From Microcystaceae cyanobacterium (lineage in GTDB: Bacteria; Cyanobacteriota; Cyanobacteriia; Cyanobacteriales; Microcystaceae), in the NCBI GenBank assembly GCA_041746575.1, contig JBGTGT010000079.1:1-14818 (forward strand): 14,818 bases of DNA, in the 5' to 3' direction. This document shows, piece after piece, positions 1 through 13,278 of this stretch (its first letter is position 1; every line of letters starts with the position of its first letter). The position numbers were made by a program, and so were the translations under genes. Below the pieces are notes generated by a model, which worked only from the letters and a program-made list of their open reading frames with translations, searched no databases and was not told the DNA's origin.

Positions 1-1087
1 CATCGATAAAATGGACAATTACACTTGGGAATATATTCAGAAACATCCTAAAGAAACAAAAAGATTATTGGGAATTAATCATGAACAATTAAGACAATTG
101 ATAGAACAAGGAAAACTTCTCCATCCAAGAAAACAAGAAGAAATTGAAAAAAAGAAAATTAGAATTATCAAAGCAGGAGGAGGGAATCATCCAAAACTCT
201 CTAAGGAAGAACAGATTATTTCAATGTTAGTTTATCTGAGACATCACTTAAGTTTTCAATTGTTAGGCTTACTTTTTCAGGTTAGTGAATCATCCGCACA
301 TAAATTGTTTAATTATTGGCAGAAATTATTTCAAGATGAGTTACCCCAAGTCTCTTAGAACAAGTAAAAAAGTCACAAGAAGAACTGGAAAAAATTCGTG
401 AAGAATTAACCCATCATGAATTGATAGTGGATAGTGCCGAGCAAGTCACAGAAAGACCTTCAGATTATGAAACTCAGAAAAAGTATTATTCAGGAAAAAA
501 AAAGACATACTTTTAAAAGTCAATTCATTGTGTTGCCAAAAGCTGAAGATATTATTGATGTAGTAATTGGACAACTCGGACCAATGAGTGATATTAAAAT
601 CGGTCGCCAAACGTTAAGCAAATTCAATTCCCAACAAACTTTTAGTGGAGATAAAGCTTACATTGGGGAAAATCAAATCATAACTCCCTCTAAAAAACCT
701 AAAAATGGAGAATTAACAAATAATCAAATTAAAGAAAATAAAGCTTTATCATCGAATCGGATTTTTGTTGAGCATTTAATTCGAGTTGTCAAAATATTTA
801 AAGTCGTTCAAGAAAGATTTCGTCTGCATAAAAGTCGATATGAATCTGTTCTCTTAACCGTTTGTGGATTAGTTCGTTTGAGAATTGGTTCCCTAATTTT
901 AGAAATAATAAAATCCGAGCAATTAGGCGAAGTAATTGACGTTATAATGAGTCATAATTTTATGCCCAAATTAGATTTCCTATCTTCAAACCCTCATTAA
1001 TTCGTTCTTAGGGCTAAATCTTCTCATTGAGTTTTATCCGCCTGCTTCCATTGCTGTGACTGGGTTATGGATTTTTGGAGATGTCTA
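1..1087 (+). mobile_element. IS5-like (ISL2-group/DDE_Tnp_4-type) insertion sequence; left end lies outside the window
   Basis: Transposase reading frames at 11-1000. TTTTTGGAGATGTCTA at 1072-1087 (reverse complement TAGACATCTCCAAAAA) resembles a terminal inverted repeat I recognise from cyanobacterial IS; its partner repeat is not visible. Confidence 0.8.
11..1000 (+). pseudogene. Transposase with an HTH_Tnp_4-like N-terminus and DDE_Tnp_4-like domain, broken by two frameshifts
   Basis: N-terminal GGG.HPKLS...LVYLRH...LGLLFQVSESSA (11-358). An unlisted middle segment in frame +1 (346-504) reads PSLLEQVKK...LIVDSAEQVTERPSDYETQKKYYSGKKK. The C-terminal part has HTFKSQ, GDKAYIG and RIFVEHLI. 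Junctions fall in a C4 run (344-347) and an A9 run (495-503). Confidence 0.88.
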
Positions 1088-1292
1088 ATATGTTCCTAAA
1101 AAATCATGTCACTGAAATAAATGATAAAGGAAACAACACAAAACGTTATCTTTGTCAAGAGAGCTAATGGCTTTTCTCTGTCAATTTATAAATCAAGCAT
1201 AATGGGGATTGATTGCTAAAAGACAGAAACCTTTTTGGAGGGGACGAATAAAAATAAGTAAATGACAATAATTGCACTTATCAATTGAGGCT

Positions 1293-2138
1293 TTATTTAA
1301 CTTCTATTATTTCTAAGACAGCCTTTTTTCCTGTTAGAATATGCAGAAATCTGACAATTTTAATGAGAGAAGTAATCCCAAAACTACTACTGGAATTATT
1401 CATAATCCAATTGTCAGTTTTCTTAGAAAATCGAGCTTTGTCAATAGCTAAACCCTTGACAACTCTGATTAACGAAGGTCGATATTTTTTGAAGACGCTA
1501 CCACAGCTAGGGGAGGTGTTATCTTGGTGTTTTTTTGCCCATTGTAGGCGATGAGCAATGGGGTTATTGTTAATTTCAGTTTTCTGAAACGTAAAGACGG
1601 CTTTTAGAATTAAGCTAGAGGTTAACCCTGTAAATATTGTTTCTCGATACCCTTTAACAATTTGCACTTTATTAAGAGTTTTAATACAGTTATCCGAGAA
1701 GTCGAAGAAGGTTACACTCTCAACAAAATCATAAATACTCATGTTTCGCCTCCATCCTCGTCCCGCATTCATCGCTAATGCTCCCCCAACCGTTGCAGGA
1801 ACTGAGGCAAGATAATAAAAACAATCGAGGGAATCTTTATAACAATATTTGAGAACATCTATGATTAAGGTGGCAGAAGACACCTCAAACTGAGTTTCAC
1901 CTAATGGCTTGATATATCCTTCTAGCTTATTTTTTAAAATTAATGTTTTTATCTTATCCCTGACAAACAGGGTGTTAGAACCATTTCCCAAAATGTAGGT
2001 GGGTACATGATTTTCCCTAGCCCAATCACAATAGCTACGAAATTCATCTATTGTATGAAATTCTCCGTAGTGTTGAAAATCATGTTTTGTTTTATAAAAA
2101 GATAGACTATTATCAGTCATCGAACTTATTTTAATCAT
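1293..2138 (-). CDS. Divergent MurB-like FAD-dependent enolpyruvyl reductase (probably not the housekeeping MurB)
   Basis: MurB motifs ILGNGSN, LASVPATVGGALAMNAG, GYRETIF, PSCGSVFK and a C-terminal LEII. The usual N-terminal T..IGG.A and S.KHANF motifs are not recognisable. Confidence 0.85.
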   Translation of the reverse strand: MIKISSMTDNSLSFYKTKHDFQHYGEFHTIDEFRSYCDWARENHVPTYILGNGSNTLFVRDKIKTLILKNKLEGYIKPLGETQFEVSSATLIIDVLKYCYKDSLDCFYYLASVPATVGGALAMNAGRGWRRNMSIYDFVESVTFFDFSDNCIKTLNKVQIVKGYRETIFTGLTSSLILKAVFTFQKTEINNNPIAHRLQWAKKHQDNTSPSCGSVFKKYRPSLIRVVKGLAIDKARFSKKTDNWIMNNSSSSFGITSLIKIVRFLHILTGKKAVLEIIEVK

Positions 2139-2249
2139 AGATTTTTAACTCATTTTAAAAATTAATTTTAACTAATAACCAACGTTCGGAGATTTTTTGA
2201 CAAAAGCCCTGACGAATTTTAAGTTAAGTATAGTTAGAATCTATTCTGT

Positions 2250-3383
2250 CTACGTAGAATAGGTCGAAGATATGGAAATAAGCTTTTCTAACCCTTTTTT
2301 TAAATAGGATTGAGACTGGTGAAGTAGCTTTTCCCTTTTCTCGTTTATTGAAGTGTAGTCGATGGAAGCAGACTGCTTTTCTAAAGCGTTGGCGTTATAT
2401 TTATCGGAAAGAATTCTGGAGGTGAGATTAAAAGTTTCTAAAATATCCATCGCCTTATTATTAGTGTTACCATAAGGAATGAAACTAAACTGCTTCTGAA
2501 AAATAATTGAAAATATTACCCCATGATAGCAGTTCGTAATAACATAAGGAGCATGATAGATATACCCCAACCATTCTTGTGGACCAATACCCACTAGGTT
2601 TTTGTTGGCAATTTTACTAGGATGACCCACAGAAATGACAGTCGAAGTATTGAGTCTTTGATTAACTAATTGAATGAGTTCCTTAGATAATGGGTTGACC
2701 ATACCATGGTGACTGTAAATTAGCACATAGTCACTGCTCCGTTTAGGAACAACCATGATGTCCTCATAATTGACCAAAAAGGTAGGATCTAAGACTTTTG
2801 TAATCTTTTTTTTACTTTCTAGTGAGGCATTAACTAATTCAATACTATTTGTATCTCTAATACCAAGCGCATGAAAATCTTGCAACAAGGTACGAATTTG
2901 TGCTTCATATTTACCCCAACTGCGAGTTGGTCCACAACTAGCTGCATAACTAAGTTTTGAGCAGTTTTGTCCATTAACAAAATCAAGAAAATAAGAAGAA
3001 TCAAAGCCTCGAACGGAATTAATACACCAAACTTGATCACTACCTATAATCACAGCGTCATATTGATGATTATATTGGTCAAGATCACTTTTCTGATAAA
3101 ATCTTTGAGGACTCAGTTGGGTATAGTTTTTTGAAAAGTTTCTCATATTTTGTGCCTTCAAAATATATTGTATGAAGACAGTATTAACCCATTCGGTGAT
3201 ATTTGCTCCCTTTCTTCTAATAGGAAGCATTTCTTTTACATAGTGCCAAACAGCTTTATAAGGACGATAATCAATTAATTCAACTTCATGACTTAGCTGA
3301 ATTAAATAACGTTGTAAAGCGTAGGACTGTAATGTTGCTCCGTAGTTAGTTGTGTGATGAAATGTTAGAATACCTATTTTCAT
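2250..3383 (-). CDS. Polysaccharide pyruvyl transferase family protein (PS_pyruv_trans)
   Basis: MKIGILTFH..NYGATLQ.YAL, IGSDQVW, SYAAS, GIRD, VLDPT and VITNCYHG motifs typical of the family. Confidence 0.9.
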   Translation of the reverse strand: MKIGILTFHHTTNYGATLQSYALQRYLIQLSHEVELIDYRPYKAVWHYVKEMLPIRRKGANITEWVNTVFIQYILKAQNMRNFSKNYTQLSPQRFYQKSDLDQYNHQYDAVIIGSDQVWCINSVRGFDSSYFLDFVNGQNCSKLSYAASCGPTRSWGKYEAQIRTLLQDFHALGIRDTNSIELVNASLESKKKITKVLDPTFLVNYEDIMVVPKRSSDYVLIYSHHGMVNPLSKELIQLVNQRLNTSTVISVGHPSKIANKNLVGIGPQEWLGYIYHAPYVITNCYHGVIFSIIFQKQFSFIPYGNTNNKAMDILETFNLTSRILSDKYNANALEKQSASIDYTSINEKREKLLHQSQSYLKKGLEKLISISSTYST

Positions 3384-3494
3384 ATTTTTCTTTTTTAGAC
3401 AAACTTACAAAGCAAAAGTTAAGTTAGAATAAAGCTCTTTAACTCCTTAATAAAGTAATTTACACTGAACTTTTCCAGAAATGATAACACAGGC

Positions 3495-3503
3495 TGTTAT
3501 GAT
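3495..3503 (+). promoter_or_regulatory. Candidate extended -10 promoter (TGnTATGAT) for the glycosyltransferase pair
   Basis: TGTTATGAT about 40 nt upstream of the ATG at 3545, in the divergent intergenic region. AT-rich context weakens the call. Confidence 0.35.
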
Positions 3504-3544
3504 AGTCAAGAAAGTTAATAACTTAAGTAGTAAATTAATACATC

Positions 3545-4501
3545 ATGCTAGATTTTACGGTTGCTATCTGTACTTATAATGGAGAAAAGCGTTTACCTGC
3601 TGTTCTAGAAAAATTAGGAGCGCAGTTAAACACAGAAAACTTTTCTTGGGAAATTATTGTGATAGATAATAATAGTACAGATGGAACAAAAGCGTTGGTA
3701 GAAAACGAGCAAAAAACTTGGGTTAAACTTTTTCCACTGCGTTATTGTTTTGAATTACGTCAGGGACTAGCTTTTGCTCGACGTTGTGCCATAAAAGAAT
3801 CTCAAAGCGAATTAATTGGCTTTTTAGATGATGATAATCTACCTGCGTCTGATTGGGTAGCACAAGCCTATCAATTTGGTCAAGAACACCCTAAAGCAGG
3901 TGCTTATGGCGGACAGATTCACGGTCAATTTGAAAAAGAACCTCCTCCCGGTTTCGGTAGGATTGCTCGCTATTTTGCAATTTTAGAAGGAAACAAAACC
4001 TATTGCTACAATAAACGTTACGAAAAAACTCGAAAAAAACTGTTCCCACCGGGGGCAGGTATTGTGATTCGTAAGCAAGCTTGGCTCAAAAGTGTGCCTG
4101 CCGAACAGCAAATTGTTGGGGTGTCCGGTTCTTCGGTTTTAACTAAATGCGAAGATGTAGAAATGCTATCTTATATTCTCTACGATGGTTGGGAATTATG
4201 GTTCAATAAAGAGATGCACATAGAGCATATTATTCCTCAATCTAGATTAACGCAAGATTATATCGTCAAGTTTTTTCGAGGGGTTGGACTCAGTCGTTAT
4301 AAAACCAGAATGATTGCTTATTCTCCATGGCAACGACCGATAGTAGCAGCCGCTTACTTCGCCAATGATTTGCAAAAATTTTTAGCTTTTTATGCGAAAA
4401 ATAAGAATGTTTTAAAAACGGATACAGTCATGGCAGGAGAAATGGAACTTCTAAGAAGTATTTTATTAAGTCCTTTTCAAGGATTGAAAAAAAATAATTA
4501 A
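3545..4501 (+). CDS. GT2 glycosyltransferase, HpsE-like (hormogonium polysaccharide biosynthesis family)
   Basis: FTVAICTYNG, IIVIDNNSTD, QGLAFAR, GFLDDD, PPGAG, EDVE and RGVGLSRY.TRM motifs characteristic of cyanobacterial HpsE-like GT2 enzymes. Confidence 0.85.
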   Translation: MLDFTVAICTYNGEKRLPAVLEKLGAQLNTENFSWEIIVIDNNSTDGTKALVENEQKTWVKLFPLRYCFELRQGLAFARRCAIKESQSELIGFLDDDNLPASDWVAQAYQFGQEHPKAGAYGGQIHGQFEKEPPPGFGRIARYFAILEGNKTYCYNKRYEKTRKKLFPPGAGIVIRKQAWLKSVPAEQQIVGVSGSSVLTKCEDVEMLSYILYDGWELWFNKEMHIEHIIPQSRLTQDYIVKFFRGVGLSRYKTRMIAYSPWQRPIVAAAYFANDLQKFLAFYAKNKNVLKTDTVMAGEMELLRSILLSPFQGLKKNN

Positions 4502-4527
4502 TTTTAAAAATGCTATTATAAAAAACA

Positions 4528-5583
4528 ATGAAGCTTTTTCATCCCGGTCTTAGAGAACTCTTACATATTAATCAATATTTGAGGAAACATAAGGTTGAGT
4601 TTTTGACCATTGAAACCTCATTGCCTCGGTGGTTTAAGGCTATTAGTAAACAGATTCCTAACTATTCTCTAGGACTACATCTCCGTCGGGAATATCGTCA
4701 TTTAGTTATGGGCTTACAGGCATTAAAACTGAAAGAAATTGATAGTATCTATGTAATGGAAGTTTACAATCAACATCTCTTGCTTTTATTACCTTTGCTA
4801 AAACTAACGGGTAAAAAAGTTTTTTTGGGTTTACATGGTAATCAAACCTTAGCCCAAGAGAATTTTATTAAGAGTTTAGGGTTTCAGTTTCTTAAACGTT
4901 ATCTTGCTGTTTCTCCCCAAACCAAAGCCGTATTATTAGAACTAGATGATGCGCTGATAAATCCTAACTTTCAATTGCCGTCGCATTCTAAAGTTGTCAT
5001 TCCTCATCCGATGATTAGTGAAGTAACCCCCCGTTTACAAAAGAAAGAAAGATTACCCAAGGATAGTCGGATTAAAGTGGGTATCGTGGGGATTATTCGA
5101 GCGGACAAACCGATTGGCAAACTGCTGACGAAACTGATAGATTATGCCTCTAAGCATAATAACTGCGAAATTGTCTTAGGAACCCCTCAAAAACAAAAAA
5201 ATCAAGAAATGGACAATTTGAACATTTCTATTTTAGATACAACTCAAGATAGGGACTACTTTAACGCATTGAAAAGTATTGATATTTTGGTTACCTATTT
5301 TGACAAAGATCGTTATTATTACCGCGCCAGTGGTGTAATCAGCGATGCCGCTTCTTGCGGTTGTTATATCATTGCACCTGACTATCCTTTAATTAAACAT
5401 CAAATCACATGGCCGGTTACAATTGGTTCTACTTTTTCAAGTATAGAAGAACTGGATTCCCTTTTAGGTGCAGCTATTTATAATGTTAGAGAAAATGGAC
5501 AAGACAATCACTGGGAGTGGCGAAAAAAAAGAGGAGCAGAATATATTGCTGAACTTTTATTTACTGATGATTTTCAAGCTTAG
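4528..5583 (+). CDS. Putative GT-B fold (GT4-like) glycosyltransferase
   Basis: VIPHP linker, VGIVGIIRADK and DILV...YYYRASGVISDAASCGCYIIAPD resemble the GT-B C-terminal nucleotide-sugar-binding domain. Starts 26 nt after the GT2 stop. Confidence 0.6.
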   Translation: MKLFHPGLRELLHINQYLRKHKVEFLTIETSLPRWFKAISKQIPNYSLGLHLRREYRHLVMGLQALKLKEIDSIYVMEVYNQHLLLLLPLLKLTGKKVFLGLHGNQTLAQENFIKSLGFQFLKRYLAVSPQTKAVLLELDDALINPNFQLPSHSKVVIPHPMISEVTPRLQKKERLPKDSRIKVGIVGIIRADKPIGKLLTKLIDYASKHNNCEIVLGTPQKQKNQEMDNLNISILDTTQDRDYFNALKSIDILVTYFDKDRYYYRASGVISDAASCGCYIIAPDYPLIKHQITWPVTIGSTFSSIEELDSLLGAAIYNVRENGQDNHWEWRKKRGAEYIAELLFTDDFQA

Positions 5584-5594
5584 CAAAGATTTGA

Positions 5595-6383
5595 CTAATT
5601 AGGATTAAGTCGGGTAAAGATGACCAAAGAAATTTGCTTATTTTCAATATTGCAGTCAAGTATTCTAACGATAAGTCCCTGCTTTTCTGACGTCTTCAAG
5701 CTGAAATTTTCGCTAAATCCATTCAAAAGACGATTGAGAAATCTGGAGGAAACATTTTGTTCATTAATACTGGCTTTGGGTTCTGTAAATTGCAAAGTTC
5801 GTCCTTCTATTATTTTTAATCCAAACTCAATTTTAAAATTAAGTTGCTCAGATTCTATGCCGTCTTCAGTGGTTTGTTCTAATTGAAAGTTAGCACGAAT
5901 TCTTTGATTTTCTAAAAACTCGACCTGAGCATTAATTAATTTAAATTCCGGTGAACCTTCAGGTCGTAAACTATCAATAATCTTTTGAATTTGGGATTTG
6001 ATATTATCAGATGCTAAAGCTTTATTGAGATCATTTTCTTGAATTAATAATCGAATACCTCCCTGTAGCGGTTGACGTAACGATTGACGAATTTTCTTGG
6101 TTTGATTCCAAGTTTCTAGGTCAATCGAGATGGGATCACTTTCTATCTCTAAAGTATCAATTCTAACATTTTTAAGTAGGTAAATTCCTCGACTGGCAAT
6201 CCTCACTTTATCTATTTTTCCCTGCAAAACTTGATAGCTGGGAATATTATCTACTCTGACTTTTAAAACCGCTACTTTCTCAACTTGCTGACGTAAATTA
6301 CTGGCAACTACTTGATCAAGAATTAACCCCGTTGGGGTAATAGCGGCGAGCAGTCCAGCGAGAACAATTGTAAACCATTCCAT
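5595..6383 (-). CDS. DUF2993 (LmeA-like) domain protein with N-terminal hydrophobic anchor
   Basis: Hydrophobic N-terminus, VRVDNIPSYQVLQGKIDKVRIASRG, LEIESDPI and DLNKAL motifs. Confidence 0.75.
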   Translation of the reverse strand: MEWFTIVLAGLLAAITPTGLILDQVVASNLRQQVEKVAVLKVRVDNIPSYQVLQGKIDKVRIASRGIYLLKNVRIDTLEIESDPISIDLETWNQTKKIRQSLRQPLQGGIRLLIQENDLNKALASDNIKSQIQKIIDSLRPEGSPEFKLINAQVEFLENQRIRANFQLEQTTEDGIESEQLNFKIEFGLKIIEGRTLQFTEPKASINEQNVSSRFLNRLLNGFSENFSLKTSEKQGLIVRILDCNIENKQISLVIFTRLNPN

Positions 6384-6504
6384 CAGTATTGAAACGAATA
6401 ATTAGTTTTTATCGTTTTTTATTATAGTCTTTCAAACACAAAAAAGTATAGCCCAGTCTAGAAGCTATACTTAGCCTAAACGCCAACAACGATTAAATCA
6501 AGAA

Positions 6505-7498
6505 TTAAAACGATAGCAAATAATGCTGATATTGGTGATAAACTTGTTCGCCGGGTAATTTAGTTTGAAATTCAGGCGGTTGATGATATTTGATCGGAGA
6601 GTGTCGCCGTCGGATATTTTGAATGACTTGATAAGCTTGTTCCCAATCTTGCAAAAGGGTTAGGAGTTTGCGAAATTGAAAATAATTTGTTTGATGTTTA
6701 GCTCTAAGAGCTAAATATTGTATAATTTTGAGGGGTAGATTTAACGCGGGATATACCAATAATACGACCTAAATTGTCAAACGTTTAGTAATAAGTGGTT
6801 ATCAAATTTAAAACATAATCAAAATCTTTGACCTCTTGGCGACTTAAATAAGTTACAACATCAGACACTTTTCCAAGAATCGAGTAGTCGGTGAGTTGGT
6901 ATTTTTTAAATAAATACAATAATCTCAGTCCGAGTTTGTCTTGCTTGACGAGACTATCTAACTCTTGGACATAAGAACATAGCACATTTTTTGCTTTTTC
7001 GGTTTTAACGAGGGGTAACACTTCGTGGAGTTTTTCGTGAACTTTATTATAGAAAAAGGGTGCACTGACGTTTCTGGATAGTAAATCAAAAACCAATTGA
7101 TAAAGCTCTTGTTGATAGCTATTACGGTACATTGATTCAATTTGTTCAATTCTCAAAAAGCTATTTTTAGCATCAATGGCAACCTTCAATAAACGCAAAC
7201 TTTGATTGAGTCTTTTATGCTCATCAGTACCCTGCAAAAATTTATTTTTTAAATTCAAAAAAAACAGAAATTCTGGTTCTTTAAATTGTTTCTTATCAAT
7301 CGCCTGAGCAATCACACCAATTTGACGAATTTTTCGCAAATTTTCTTTATAAAGATCGATAACATCAGGGTTGATATCCTGCTTCTTTAAAAAGCTGGTC
7401 ATTAACTCTAAAAGTCTTTTGTCTGAATTGTCCTTTTGCGGTGAATTAGAGGGATCGGAATCATTAAAAAACACTGAAGAACAAAAATCTGGATTCAT
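6505..7498 (-). pseudogene. Hypothetical cyanobacterial protein disrupted by an internal stop and a frameshift
   Basis: After TAA at 6787-6785 the same frame continues TFDNLGRIIGISRVKSTPQNY. Near 6722 it shifts into the frame of ORF 6505-6759 (IQYLALRAKHQTNYFQF...PGEQVYHQY), which has no ATG start. Confidence 0.65.
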
Positions 7499-11083: not shown

Positions 11084-11848
11084 TTACAAATTAAATGGCT
11101 GTAATGAAGCTTCAATTAAGGATGGCAACGTTTTTTGTAACTCACTATTGTTTTTGAACGATAATCGTCGATGTGTCGGTATATCAAAAGGAAATTGACC
11201 CTGAAAATCGCTTCTTTCCATATTTAATAATAAAATCTGACCCGGACGTTTACATTGTATGGCATATCCCATTTCTGCACAAACCGCAGAACTGAGCAGA
11301 AGGTGGGGTGTTTCTTCAGGAGTCACCTGAGAAATCGGCGTACCATCGGCGATATAAAGCAGACTTTTGCGAATTTTCCGCAGTTGACTGTCACTGAGGC
11401 GAAGCGGCGTATTTAGTGGACGGGAAGCTTCTTCTAGCCTGAGGAGTAAACGAGAACGCTGATTAATCTTTTCGAGGGTTTCTGTTAAAATCGCCCGAAT
11501 CGAAGTGGAAGCAGAAGTATATTCAACCTGAGAACTGAAATAAATCACAGGATCAAGGTTTGCCGTGATATCCTGCTTGTCGAAGTAAATTTCGTGAGAA
11601 ATTAAATCAATATTAGCGATCGTATAACCGCCACTGCCTTCAATATAAAAATCGACGGTTTGTCCTTCTAAGTAACGCTGAAACCAGAGAGATGTTTCAA
11701 CCTCGGCACCATCGTCTAAAAAGTCAGCCCTTAACCCCGATTTTAAGAGACTATTACGACTGAGGCGCAAATCTTGGGGACGTTTAACCACTTCCCGAAT
11801 GGGTTCATATTTCTCTAAATACCAAGCTTTGAGAGGGATAATGGCCAT
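11084..11848 (-). CDS. Hypothetical protein with possible nucleoside-deoxyribosyltransferase/TIR-like C-terminal domain
   Basis: 254-aa ORF. KIRKSLLYIADGTP...AVCAEMGYA resembles the KI...IFIADVT...NV..ELGYA pattern. Confidence 0.7.
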   Translation of the reverse strand: MAIIPLKAWYLEKYEPIREVVKRPQDLRLSRNSLLKSGLRADFLDDGAEVETSLWFQRYLEGQTVDFYIEGSGGYTIANIDLISHEIYFDKQDITANLDPVIYFSSQVEYTSASTSIRAILTETLEKINQRSRLLLRLEEASRPLNTPLRLSDSQLRKIRKSLLYIADGTPISQVTPEETPHLLLSSAVCAEMGYAIQCKRPGQILLLNMERSDFQGQFPFDIPTHRRLSFKNNSELQKTLPSLIEASLQPFNL

Positions 11849-12465: not shown

Positions 12466-13278
12466 TTATTCAATGCCTTCAGGTGCTTTTACGCTCAAAT
12501 TGCCCTGAGCATCCGTAGTAATTTGACCGCCTAATGCTCGAATTTCTGTTAAAGCGCGTCGAATTGTTCTTTCATCGGATGTACTTGAGATGACCATCGT
12601 CCATGCGCCAATTTGAGCGACCTTACTACTCGGATGATTTTCTAAAAATTGAGCCGTTTGGCGAACACGCTGGGCCGTTTGTTGAGCTTTGGGTGTATTA
12701 TATTGATCTGCCCACTGACCGGCCATCAAATAGGAGCGATGGGCGGCTTGGGAATCTCCCATAAATAATAATTCGTTGACACCTTTTCCCATCCAAAGAT
12801 AATAAGGTTCGATGTTATTGCCCTTCATTTTGGCAGGAATAACGGCTAAACTTTTTTCATAGGATTTAATAGATGTCTGTGGATCTCCCCCAAAGATAGA
12901 TGTTCCTGCATCGAGCTTAATAAGCGCATCTACAAAACGAGGATCTTTATCAACCACGGCGGTCATATAATCAGAAGAAAGAACATAACCCGTTGCTTCT
13001 CTTCCTTCAAGATCGCCAAAATACTGAATATATTGTAGGTATAACCAATCAGCAATGATATTACGAAATCCTAACGATGGAATGTTTTTGATAAGTTGTA
13101 GTCGCAGTTTTTCCGCTTCTTCCTGTATCAAATAATCGGCTTTTGTGAAGGCCGTCTCTTGAGGTTTCATCTGATGTTGTTGAAGACGAATAATGCCCAA
13201 AAGACAGGCTAAAATTAAACCACCACTGGCGAGGAAACGATACGTAGTAGGGGTCAGTTTCAGCATACCTTGATTCAT
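12466..13278 (-). CDS. Membrane-anchored, helical cyanobacterial hypothetical protein
   Basis: N-terminal hydrophobic segment, PSLGFRNIIADWLYLQYIQYFGD...TGY, DPRF and AQIGAW motifs. Confidence 0.75.
   Translation of the reverse strand: MNQGMLKLTPTTYRFLASGGLILACLLGIIRLQQHQMKPQETAFTKADYLIQEEAEKLRLQLIKNIPSLGFRNIIADWLYLQYIQYFGDLEGREATGYVLSSDYMTAVVDKDPRFVDALIKLDAGTSIFGGDPQTSIKSYEKSLAVIPAKMKGNNIEPYYLWMGKGVNELLFMGDSQAAHRSYLMAGQWADQYNTPKAQQTAQRVRQTAQFLENHPSSKVAQIGAWTMVISSTSDERTIRRALTEIRALGGQITTDAQGNLSVKAPEGIE

Follow-up and report, generated by a model that had tools for sequence, protein, structure and literature searches.

A pyruvyltransferase and a paralogue of the peptidoglycan enzyme MurB are encoded side by side in a Microcystaceae cyanobacterium. 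We think it quite probable, judging from their sequences, that together they put a lactyl ether on a surface glycan: the pyruvyltransferase (PT) would transfer an enolpyruvyl group and the MurB paralogue, a flavoenzyme, would reduce it. PTs of this kind are mostly accompanied by, or fused with, a flavin reductase of one of three unrelated types, and the one known product is a lactyl ether, so we believe the enol-ether route is the best explanation. The window analysed is the whole stretch of 14,818 nucleotides from contig JBGTGT010000079.1 (assembly GCA_041746575.1).

The gene pair and its surroundings

The features that matter here are these.

11..1000, plus strand: transposase of an IS, occupying two reading frames, at the end of the contig (HTH_Tnp_4 and DDE_Tnp_4)
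1293..2138, minus strand: MurB paralogue of 281 aa, predicted to use FAD in reducing the enolpyruvyl ether of a non-peptidoglycan sugar (from fold, residues and its own clade)
2139..2249, minus strand: intergenic spacer of 111 nt between PT and MurB paralogue (from sequence)
2250..3383, minus strand: PF04230 polysaccharide pyruvyltransferase, 377 aa; predicted enolpyruvyl transferase (PF04230 98 bits, cut-off 25)
3545..4501, plus strand: HpsE-type GT2 glycosyltransferase, divergent from the pair (NF038302 equivalog, 450 against a cut-off of 300)

A preliminary description of this DNA placed the PT gene 111 nt upstream of a co-oriented MurB-like gene, and both reading frames do lie on the minus strand at these coordinates. 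The two likely share one transcript, as far as the nucleotide sequence can tell. There is no terminator-like site in the 111-nt gap, and promoter-like matches around the pair are at chance level (9 against 10.4 expected). The window was also said to hold no further mur or division gene, and none is present among the 14 ORFs scanned. The statement that glycosyltransferases adjoin the pair is correct for one recognised GT2, the divergent gene at 3545-4501; the ORF at 4528-5583 has no match in Pfam or NCBIfam. No flippase lies beside the pair within the window. The HpsE match, together with the named homologues, marks the host as cyanobacterial. The HpsE-type GT2 and its next gene are present in a congener, and neither the PT nor the MurB paralogue was found in the 12 kb fetched from it. 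The first 141 nt of the window are repeated at the ends of two contigs (C59 and C19).

The MurB paralogue

The preliminary reading supposes that the genome has a separate canonical murB, and it does. The host genome is 99.8% complete and encodes a 326-aa MurB (MurB_C 129 bits) on contig C48, directly after a Mur-ligase ORF that we read by eye as murC. The paralogue in the window is 27% identical to this protein. It scores 40 bits for FAD_binding_4 and a weak 22 bits, under the cut-off, for MurB_C. All seven NCBIfam murB models that it matches leave it under their cut-offs, and the equivalog models do not recognise it as canonical MurB (TIGR00179, 91.5 against 144.5; PRK13905, 105 against 259). 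Many members of the paralogue group carry the database name UDP-N-acetylmuramate dehydrogenase.

Over its full length the structural model of the paralogue (pLDDT 94) agrees with MurB structures. All of the top 15 rows listed by Foldseek are MurB entries, with TM 0.72-0.83, and the model has the three-domain FAD fold of MurB (3tx1, E 4e-20, TM 0.81; 1hsk, TM 0.82). MurB uses an Arg, a Ser and a Glu as the catalytic set for reducing the enolpyruvyl group, by hydride addition to an acrylate-type double bond. In an alignment with S. aureus MurB (1hsk), R165 and S214 of the paralogue correspond to positions 188 and 238, and E276 falls on the C-terminal Glu when the paralogue is aligned with the canonical MurB of the host. 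R165, E276 and S/T214 are each conserved in 78 of 78 sequences in an alignment of close relatives; among 116 full-length distant representatives the Arg is found in 115, the Glu in 116 and Ser or Thr in 112. The title of PDB entry 1uxy names a Ser229Ala mutant with enolpyruvyl-UDP-GlcNAc. Near the active site the paralogue has QD for QP, T for H and W for F relative to canonical MurB, and systematic differences at further positions fit a changed substrate.

We placed the paralogue in a quick MurB tree of 110 rows, from which a broken gene (locus L041) and two plasmid MurBs (L216, L217) were left out. It belongs to a separate, long-branched clade of 22 rows (SH-aLRT 100) whose members come from cyanobacteria, one planctomycete, one lentisphaere and one Peribacteraceae genome. 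The canonical MurB of the host groups with the copies of its congeners. The paralogue neither falls in this housekeeping clade nor lies near mur genes. The rows from Natrinema, Cetobacterium and Novosphingobium are long branches and their placement is unsure.

The pyruvyltransferase

The window's PT is a member of PF04230 by its Pfam score and by its two-domain GT-B-like fold. The model (pLDDT 87) is GT-B; the first Foldseek ranks are generic GT-B proteins, and Pvg1p (5ax7) stands at rank 12 among GT-B proteins with Z 16.0 and rmsd 3.7 over 256 aligned residues. Since the model is GT-B and Pvg1p-like, the PT is no MurA homologue. The earlier proposal that it acts like MurA must be given up as to fold, which is predicted to be the GT-B fold of Pvg1p, and it stands in the sense of chemistry, as a prediction. 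The PT has no PF00275 domain and so is not a MurA/EPSP-synthase member. We also considered a MurA paralogue as the transferase of this module and rejected it: the genome has just two PF00275 matches, on contigs C133 and C44, and neither is near the pair. We take these two to be aroA and murA.

By sequence the PT is distant from the ketal-forming enzymes compared. The genome has a second PT on contig C75, labelled CsaB-type from its sequence, and the window's PT has no significant match to it; on the CsaB model TIGR03609 the window's PT scores 25 against 213. A profile built from the window's PT gives 196 bits to the PT of the E. coli O124 cluster, 12 to ExoV, 4 to WcaK, 2.5 to the genome's own CsaB-type PT and -1 to the O149 PT. 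These controls are one lactyl-positive and four ketal-type enzymes, with WcfO and the pneumococcal ketal PTs left out; we take ExoV and WcaK to be ketal-forming. The four ketal-type PTs fall outside the tree group of the window's PT, on long branches. Measured against these four controls and TIGR03609, the window's PT is not a member of the ketal-forming group by sequence. It shares with CsaB, WcfO, Pvg1p, ExoV, WcaK and the O149 PT the Pfam family, the fold and the presumed PEP donor. Passages of PMC7685785 describe a 4,6-pyruvate on the O149 O antigen, and no reductase gene is present in the O149 cluster or in the exo stretch fetched. All three characterised PF04230-type enzymes described in passages of PMC6801904 form ketals, and PEP is used. 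The residue H287 of the window's PT is invariant in the PT alignment and may correspond to H339 of Pvg1p. The PT subfamily has no match among PDB sequences, which means little since the ExoV control has none either.

Conservation of the pair

The PT adjoins the paralogue in 21 of the 22 clade rows and the remaining row stops at a contig edge. In a GTDB scan, which covered 10 of 64 database parts and kept 80 of 581 matches, 14 of 15 clade loci have an adjacent PT and the 15th stops at a contig edge. Within the DNA fetched, no PT lies near any of 84 other MurB loci (19 of them with only about 1.5 kb flanks), nor near any of the 85 rows that make up the canonical part of the tree. The paralogue is patchily distributed. 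It is found in 0 of 60 relatives, in 2 of 400 genomes of the phylum and in 10 of 251 genomes of one cyanobacterial family. In all 10 of these the PT adjoins the paralogue or is one gene away, and all 10 fall within the 21 of 251 genomes that have this PT subfamily (hypergeometric 1.5e-12, a figure that is overstated because related genomes are not independent). The preliminary description proposed testing whether this MurB clade goes with PF04230 genes. It does, in 21 of 22 rows and 10 of 10 genomes, and the pairing is conserved elsewhere, natural fusions included.

The pair also occurs well outside the Microcystaceae. Nostoc commune NIES-4072 encodes at least the paralogue, 56% identical to the one in the window, which links it to nosturonic acid at the level of the species. 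Most of the Nostoc loci fetched have a flippase-like gene ahead of the pair, as judged from ORF lists and checked against Pfam in L228 only; this arrangement suggests a Wzy-type repeat unit. The pair of the haloarchaeon Natrinema is flanked by a GT2, a flippase and aglF; according to PMC10117817, archaea lack murein. Ten plasmid neighbourhoods, drawn from 103 records, have a MurB-like partner in three (Novosphingobium, Cetobacterium and the archaeon Natrinema), a nitroreductase in three (one fused), an FrhB-like partner in three and a MurB remnant in one. At two loci, L041 and a plasmid of N. flagelliforme, an intact PT lies beside a broken paralogue.

Interchangeable reductases

The reductase partner of this PT subfamily comes in three types, and MurB is just one of them. 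The MurB-like, nitroreductase-like and FrhB-like types each occur fused to PT. One natural PT-MurB fusion (P0407) has 656 aa, with PT at 1-359 and the MurB-like part at 405-654, and its cluster has 3 full-length members. An 845-aa PT-MurB protein is encoded beside glf on plasmid pAES7 of Paracoccus aestuarii. A search for longer relatives with the close-relative alignment of the paralogue had no PT-MurB fusion among its 61 matches. There is also a PT-nitroreductase fusion, and PF04432 is present in 106 of the best 120 long PT matches by hand count and in 120 of 120 by our own profile. The partners are not strictly exclusive, since a singleton (P0430) fuses FrhB-like and MurB-like domains.

Of the 21 PT genomes in the 251-genome sample, 10 carry the MurB paralogue and 7 a nitroreductase, which is adjacent in 6 and lies elsewhere in 1; the other 4 have neither, and three of these 4 belong to one genus. 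None of the 251 genomes has both the MurB paralogue and the nitroreductase, and one (G588) has a nitroreductase without a PT at the threshold used. A prospective test for an alternative reductase in 11 PT-only genomes found the predicted partner in 7. In the host genome itself (G000) our profiles find no dedicated nitroreductase-type or close FrhB-type partner.

Among PT loci from metagenomes, the best 80 of 576 have an FrhB-like partner in 46, a MurB-like partner in 5, a nitroreductase in 3 and none in 26; many of the 80 are near-copies or truncated, and one FrhB match is a weak edge fragment. Two reductase types never occur at one locus among these 80. Around the 26 partnerless loci the three types are absent from the 58 of 124 neighbours that were Pfam-scanned, and 8 of the 26 have about 5 kb on both sides. 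In a PT tree of 62 rows the partner switches repeatedly, and even near-sisters can differ: L035 has MurB and L227 a nitroreductase, with support of 100.

Lactyl glycans and their gene clusters

We arrived at the E. coli O124/O164-family cluster by following DNA similarity from a plasmid match. Its order is wzx, an FrhB-like gene, PT. The window's PT is 33% identical to the O124 cluster PT over 397 columns (E 8e-40), and it falls in the WfeP-like subfamily, for which there is one positive control. According to passages of PMC7685785, E. coli O124 carries lactyl-glucose and O164 is without the lactyl group through a frameshift in wfeP, a gene tied there to making UDP-D-GlcpLA. The O124/O164-family PT is annotated as two pieces in 3 of 6 genomes, and we infer from this split that wfeP is the PT gene of the cluster. 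In one aligned pair of genomes from the family there is a single-base difference over the FrhB-like and PT genes, and it lies within the PT. The preliminary description knew of no genes assigned to lactyl-ether sugars; that claim does not hold, as wfeP has been assigned in E. coli O124/O164 in these passages of PMC7685785.

The O124 module and the pair in the window are alike in having a PT of the same subfamily and an adjoining reductase-like gene, which is MurB-like here instead of FrhB-like, and the O124 product is a lactyl ether. They differ in that the O124 partner is FrhB-like (PF04422/PF04432), that the cluster makes an enterobacterial O antigen and that the assignment, in the passages available, is genetic. 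MurA and MurB (EC 2.5.1.7 and 1.3.1.98) have in common with the pair the two-step logic, which is predicted here, a fold at TM about 0.8, the FAD-binding motifs and the Arg/Ser/Glu set. They differ in that MurA is of the EPSP-synthase family, whereas the transferase in the window is a GT-B protein of PF04230 in a surface-glycan-cluster context.

The capsules of Klebsiella K22, K37 and K66 contain lactyl ethers. Passages of PMC4616057 report PT genes in K8, K22, K37 and K66 though these capsules are not pyruvylated, and the survey as a whole lists 2 nitroreductase genes and 1 F420-hydrogenase gene. In E. faecalis the lactyl-Galf capsule (diheteroglycan) is tied to cps in passages of the literature, where cpsG is listed as a 'MurB family protein'; those passages state no link between CpsG and the lactyl group. 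This cps locus resembles our pair as a lactyl-glycan locus with a MurB-family gene, and it has glf, as does pAES7; CpsG is compared by description only. A second E. faecalis cluster (L214) has a PT, a flippase and a nitroreductase. [quoted passage not shown] Lactyl-ether sugars are further reported, in passages of the literature, from the EPS of Nostoc commune and of Vibrio, several O antigens of E. coli, the capsule of E. faecalis and the LOS of Odoribacter.

Proposed mechanism and alternatives

In the chemistry of this kind of transfer, C2 of PEP is attacked by a hydroxyl of the sugar. The adduct can then go two ways: displacement of phosphate by another hydroxyl yields a ketal, and elimination of phosphate yields an enolpyruvyl ether, the course taken by MurA. 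The PT would transfer enolpyruvate from PEP to a single sugar hydroxyl. The PEP adduct would lose phosphate with no ring closure by a second hydroxyl, and the PT would stop at the enol ether. The MurB paralogue would reduce this enol ether as MurB does, using FAD and probably NADPH. No second enzyme is required for a ketal and an acrylate enol ether is what MurB reduces, so a reductase partner fits the enol-ether route. The product of MurB is (R)-lactyl, and the lactyl (1-carboxyethyl) ether made by the pair would likely be in the (R) form too. The nosturonic acid of Nostoc commune is (R)-configured in the passages that describe it. The acceptor would be cytoplasmic and probably undecaprenyl-PP-linked. 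Overall the interpretation offered in the preliminary description is supported, as a separate murB exists, the pairing is conserved and the PT groups with that of O124.

One alternative concerns the acceptor. The pair could be a full analogue of MurA and MurB working on a nucleotide sugar, making a lactyl-sugar donor (a UDP-lactyl-hexose or an isomer of muramic acid) for a glycosyltransferase. The role given to wfeP in PMC7685785, cited above, favours this, and the natural MurB substrate is a UDP-sugar. However, passages of PMC6801904 report that CsaB and WcfO reject nucleotide sugars and require lipid-linked acceptors, and by analogy the acceptor here may be lipid-linked instead of an NDP-sugar. 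In O164 plain glucose is transferred at the corresponding site, consistent with a modification that follows transfer. We consider a nucleotide-sugar acceptor unlikely, although it departs from our reading in the acceptor only and part of its probability is shared. A more distant possibility is that the PT alone makes a ketal or other end product and that the paralogue has a redox role of its own within that glycan pathway, for instance on a different nucleotide sugar. Partnerless PTs in 4 of 21 genomes and at 8 well-flanked loci of 80 can be cited for this, as can the two loci where the paralogue was lost while the PT was kept. We still find it improbable: the paralogue was never found without the PT where flank existed, three unrelated reductase folds are each fused to PT and, by the genetics of O124/O164, a PT relative is connected with a lactyl ether.

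It could also be argued that the PT forms a cyclic ketal, which the flavoenzyme then opens reductively to the lactyl ether. The characterised PF04230 enzymes do form ketals, and the PT shares their fold and keeps H287. But a ketal is no acrylate-type acceptor and the paralogue retains the Arg/Ser/Glu set of MurB; the PT is also distant from the ketal enzymes tested. We regard this route as very improbable. Finally, the MurB-like gene might be a spare or alternative peptidoglycan enzyme that lies beside a PT by chance, as its best curated matches (murB models) and the names of its relatives in the databases would suggest. We reject this. A canonical murB is present, a relative of the paralogue occurs in a haloarchaeon, the context is that of a glycan cluster, and the distribution is patchy (as counted above for relatives and phylum) within a separate long-branched clade.

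Implications

In the literature covered, which included few subscription journals, we found neither a link between a MurB paralogue and a pyruvyltransferase nor genes for cyanobacterial lactyl sugars. Knirel 2017 or Liu 2008 may have put forward transfer followed by reduction in enterobacteria before us. The genetics of E. coli already point to such a module, and the pair is probably a variant of it with a MurB-type reductase. The enzymology of lactyl-ether sugars goes no further than a gene name in the passages covered, and the pair offers candidate enzymes, two small and likely soluble proteins, for lactyl sugars such as nosturonic acid. A proposed effect of nosturonic acid on the rheology and water flux of Nostoc colonies is described in passages of the literature.

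We tentatively offer a broader proposal, while thinking it somewhat more apt to fail than to hold in full. A large subfamily of PF04230 would be enolpyruvyl transferases, a third fold with MurA chemistry, into which any one of three unrelated flavin reductases plugs; the choice of reductase would set the (R) or (S) form of the ether. Cyanobacteria, gut bacteria and haloarchaea would commonly carry lactyl ethers, predictable from their genomes, and in Nostoc the MurB-type pair would serve as nosturonic-acid synthase. Copies of the paralogue type annotated as 'murB' are probably not cell-wall genes, and should be flagged as misannotated. If our reading of the pair is true, PF04230 would gain a new chemistry, a peptidoglycan enzyme would have been turned to other glycans, those of an archaeon included, and lactyl decoration would become predictable from gene clusters.

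MurB gene pairs without a pyruvyltransferase

Another MurB paralogue is found next to a different candidate partner. Directly after it, within an EPS cluster, lies a PF00275 (MurA-like) gene:

L008:1378-3562 and L246, genome G011: MurB paralogue, then PF00275 gene
L045:7893-10069, Oscillatoria sp. CS-180: MurB paralogue, then PF00275 gene

These clusters also encode an ABC exporter, a hexapeptide acetyltransferase and GT2 glycosyltransferases, and none of them contains a PF04230 polysaccharide pyruvyltransferase (PT). In our tree the MurBs of G011 and Oscillatoria sp. CS-180 form a separate clade with support of 100. The pair is likely a second route, apart from the PT-MurB pair, and its product is likely a muramic-acid-like sugar or a lactyl ether for a cyanobacterial glycan.

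Two fusion proteins contain a MurB-like part. One protein of 476 aa (P0333, from a cluster of 14) joins the MurB paralogue to a formyltransferase domain, which points to a sugar both formylated and lactylated. The other, a singleton of 674 aa (P0430), joins a MurB-like domain to ferredoxin and FrhB-like domains; the FrhB part may feed it electrons, or the fusion may be accidental.

Pyruvyltransferase loci in other bacteria

L121, E. coli IAI1, galF-gnd region: flippase, FrhB-like gene, PT, EpsG, GT2 and galE
L117:3995-6470, Sinorhizobium meliloti pSymB: PT and FrhB-like gene

The E. coli cluster is matched in 8 E. coli chromosomes, and its glycan is predicted to carry a lactyl ether. No glycan cluster is visible around the Sinorhizobium pair, and Sinorhizobium accounts for 66 of the 103 plasmid records that match PT. 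The IS-rich E. coli plasmid p30COLEC-2 (L110), with relatives in two further strains, holds a glycan cluster with a nitroreductase and two PTs of the subfamily.

Among the PT loci with no known reductase partner are these five:

L162:3211-5001, L176:6100-7884 and L182:2037-3809: thiamine-diphosphate enzyme
L178:2-1291 and L181:3544-5001: PF01663 phosphodiesterase-family gene directly upstream of PT

The thiamine-diphosphate enzyme, accompanied by an SDR or epimerase in two of its three loci, is possibly a fourth partner type or part of a branched-sugar pathway.

The remainder of the window

4528-5583, +: 351-aa protein, no match in Pfam or NCBIfam
6788-7498, -; 11087-11848, -; 12469-13278, -: ORFs of 237-270 aa, no match in a Pfam scan

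The 351-aa protein has relatives in two congeners (69-71% identical) and was not found in three other genomes of the family; in the congener G002 its counterpart likewise follows an HpsE-type gene. ORFs in 1-7498 have a G+C of 31-38%; the genome stands at 40% and most later ORFs at 42-44%. This low G+C, together with the IS, suggests that 1-7498 is a variable or acquired glycan region.
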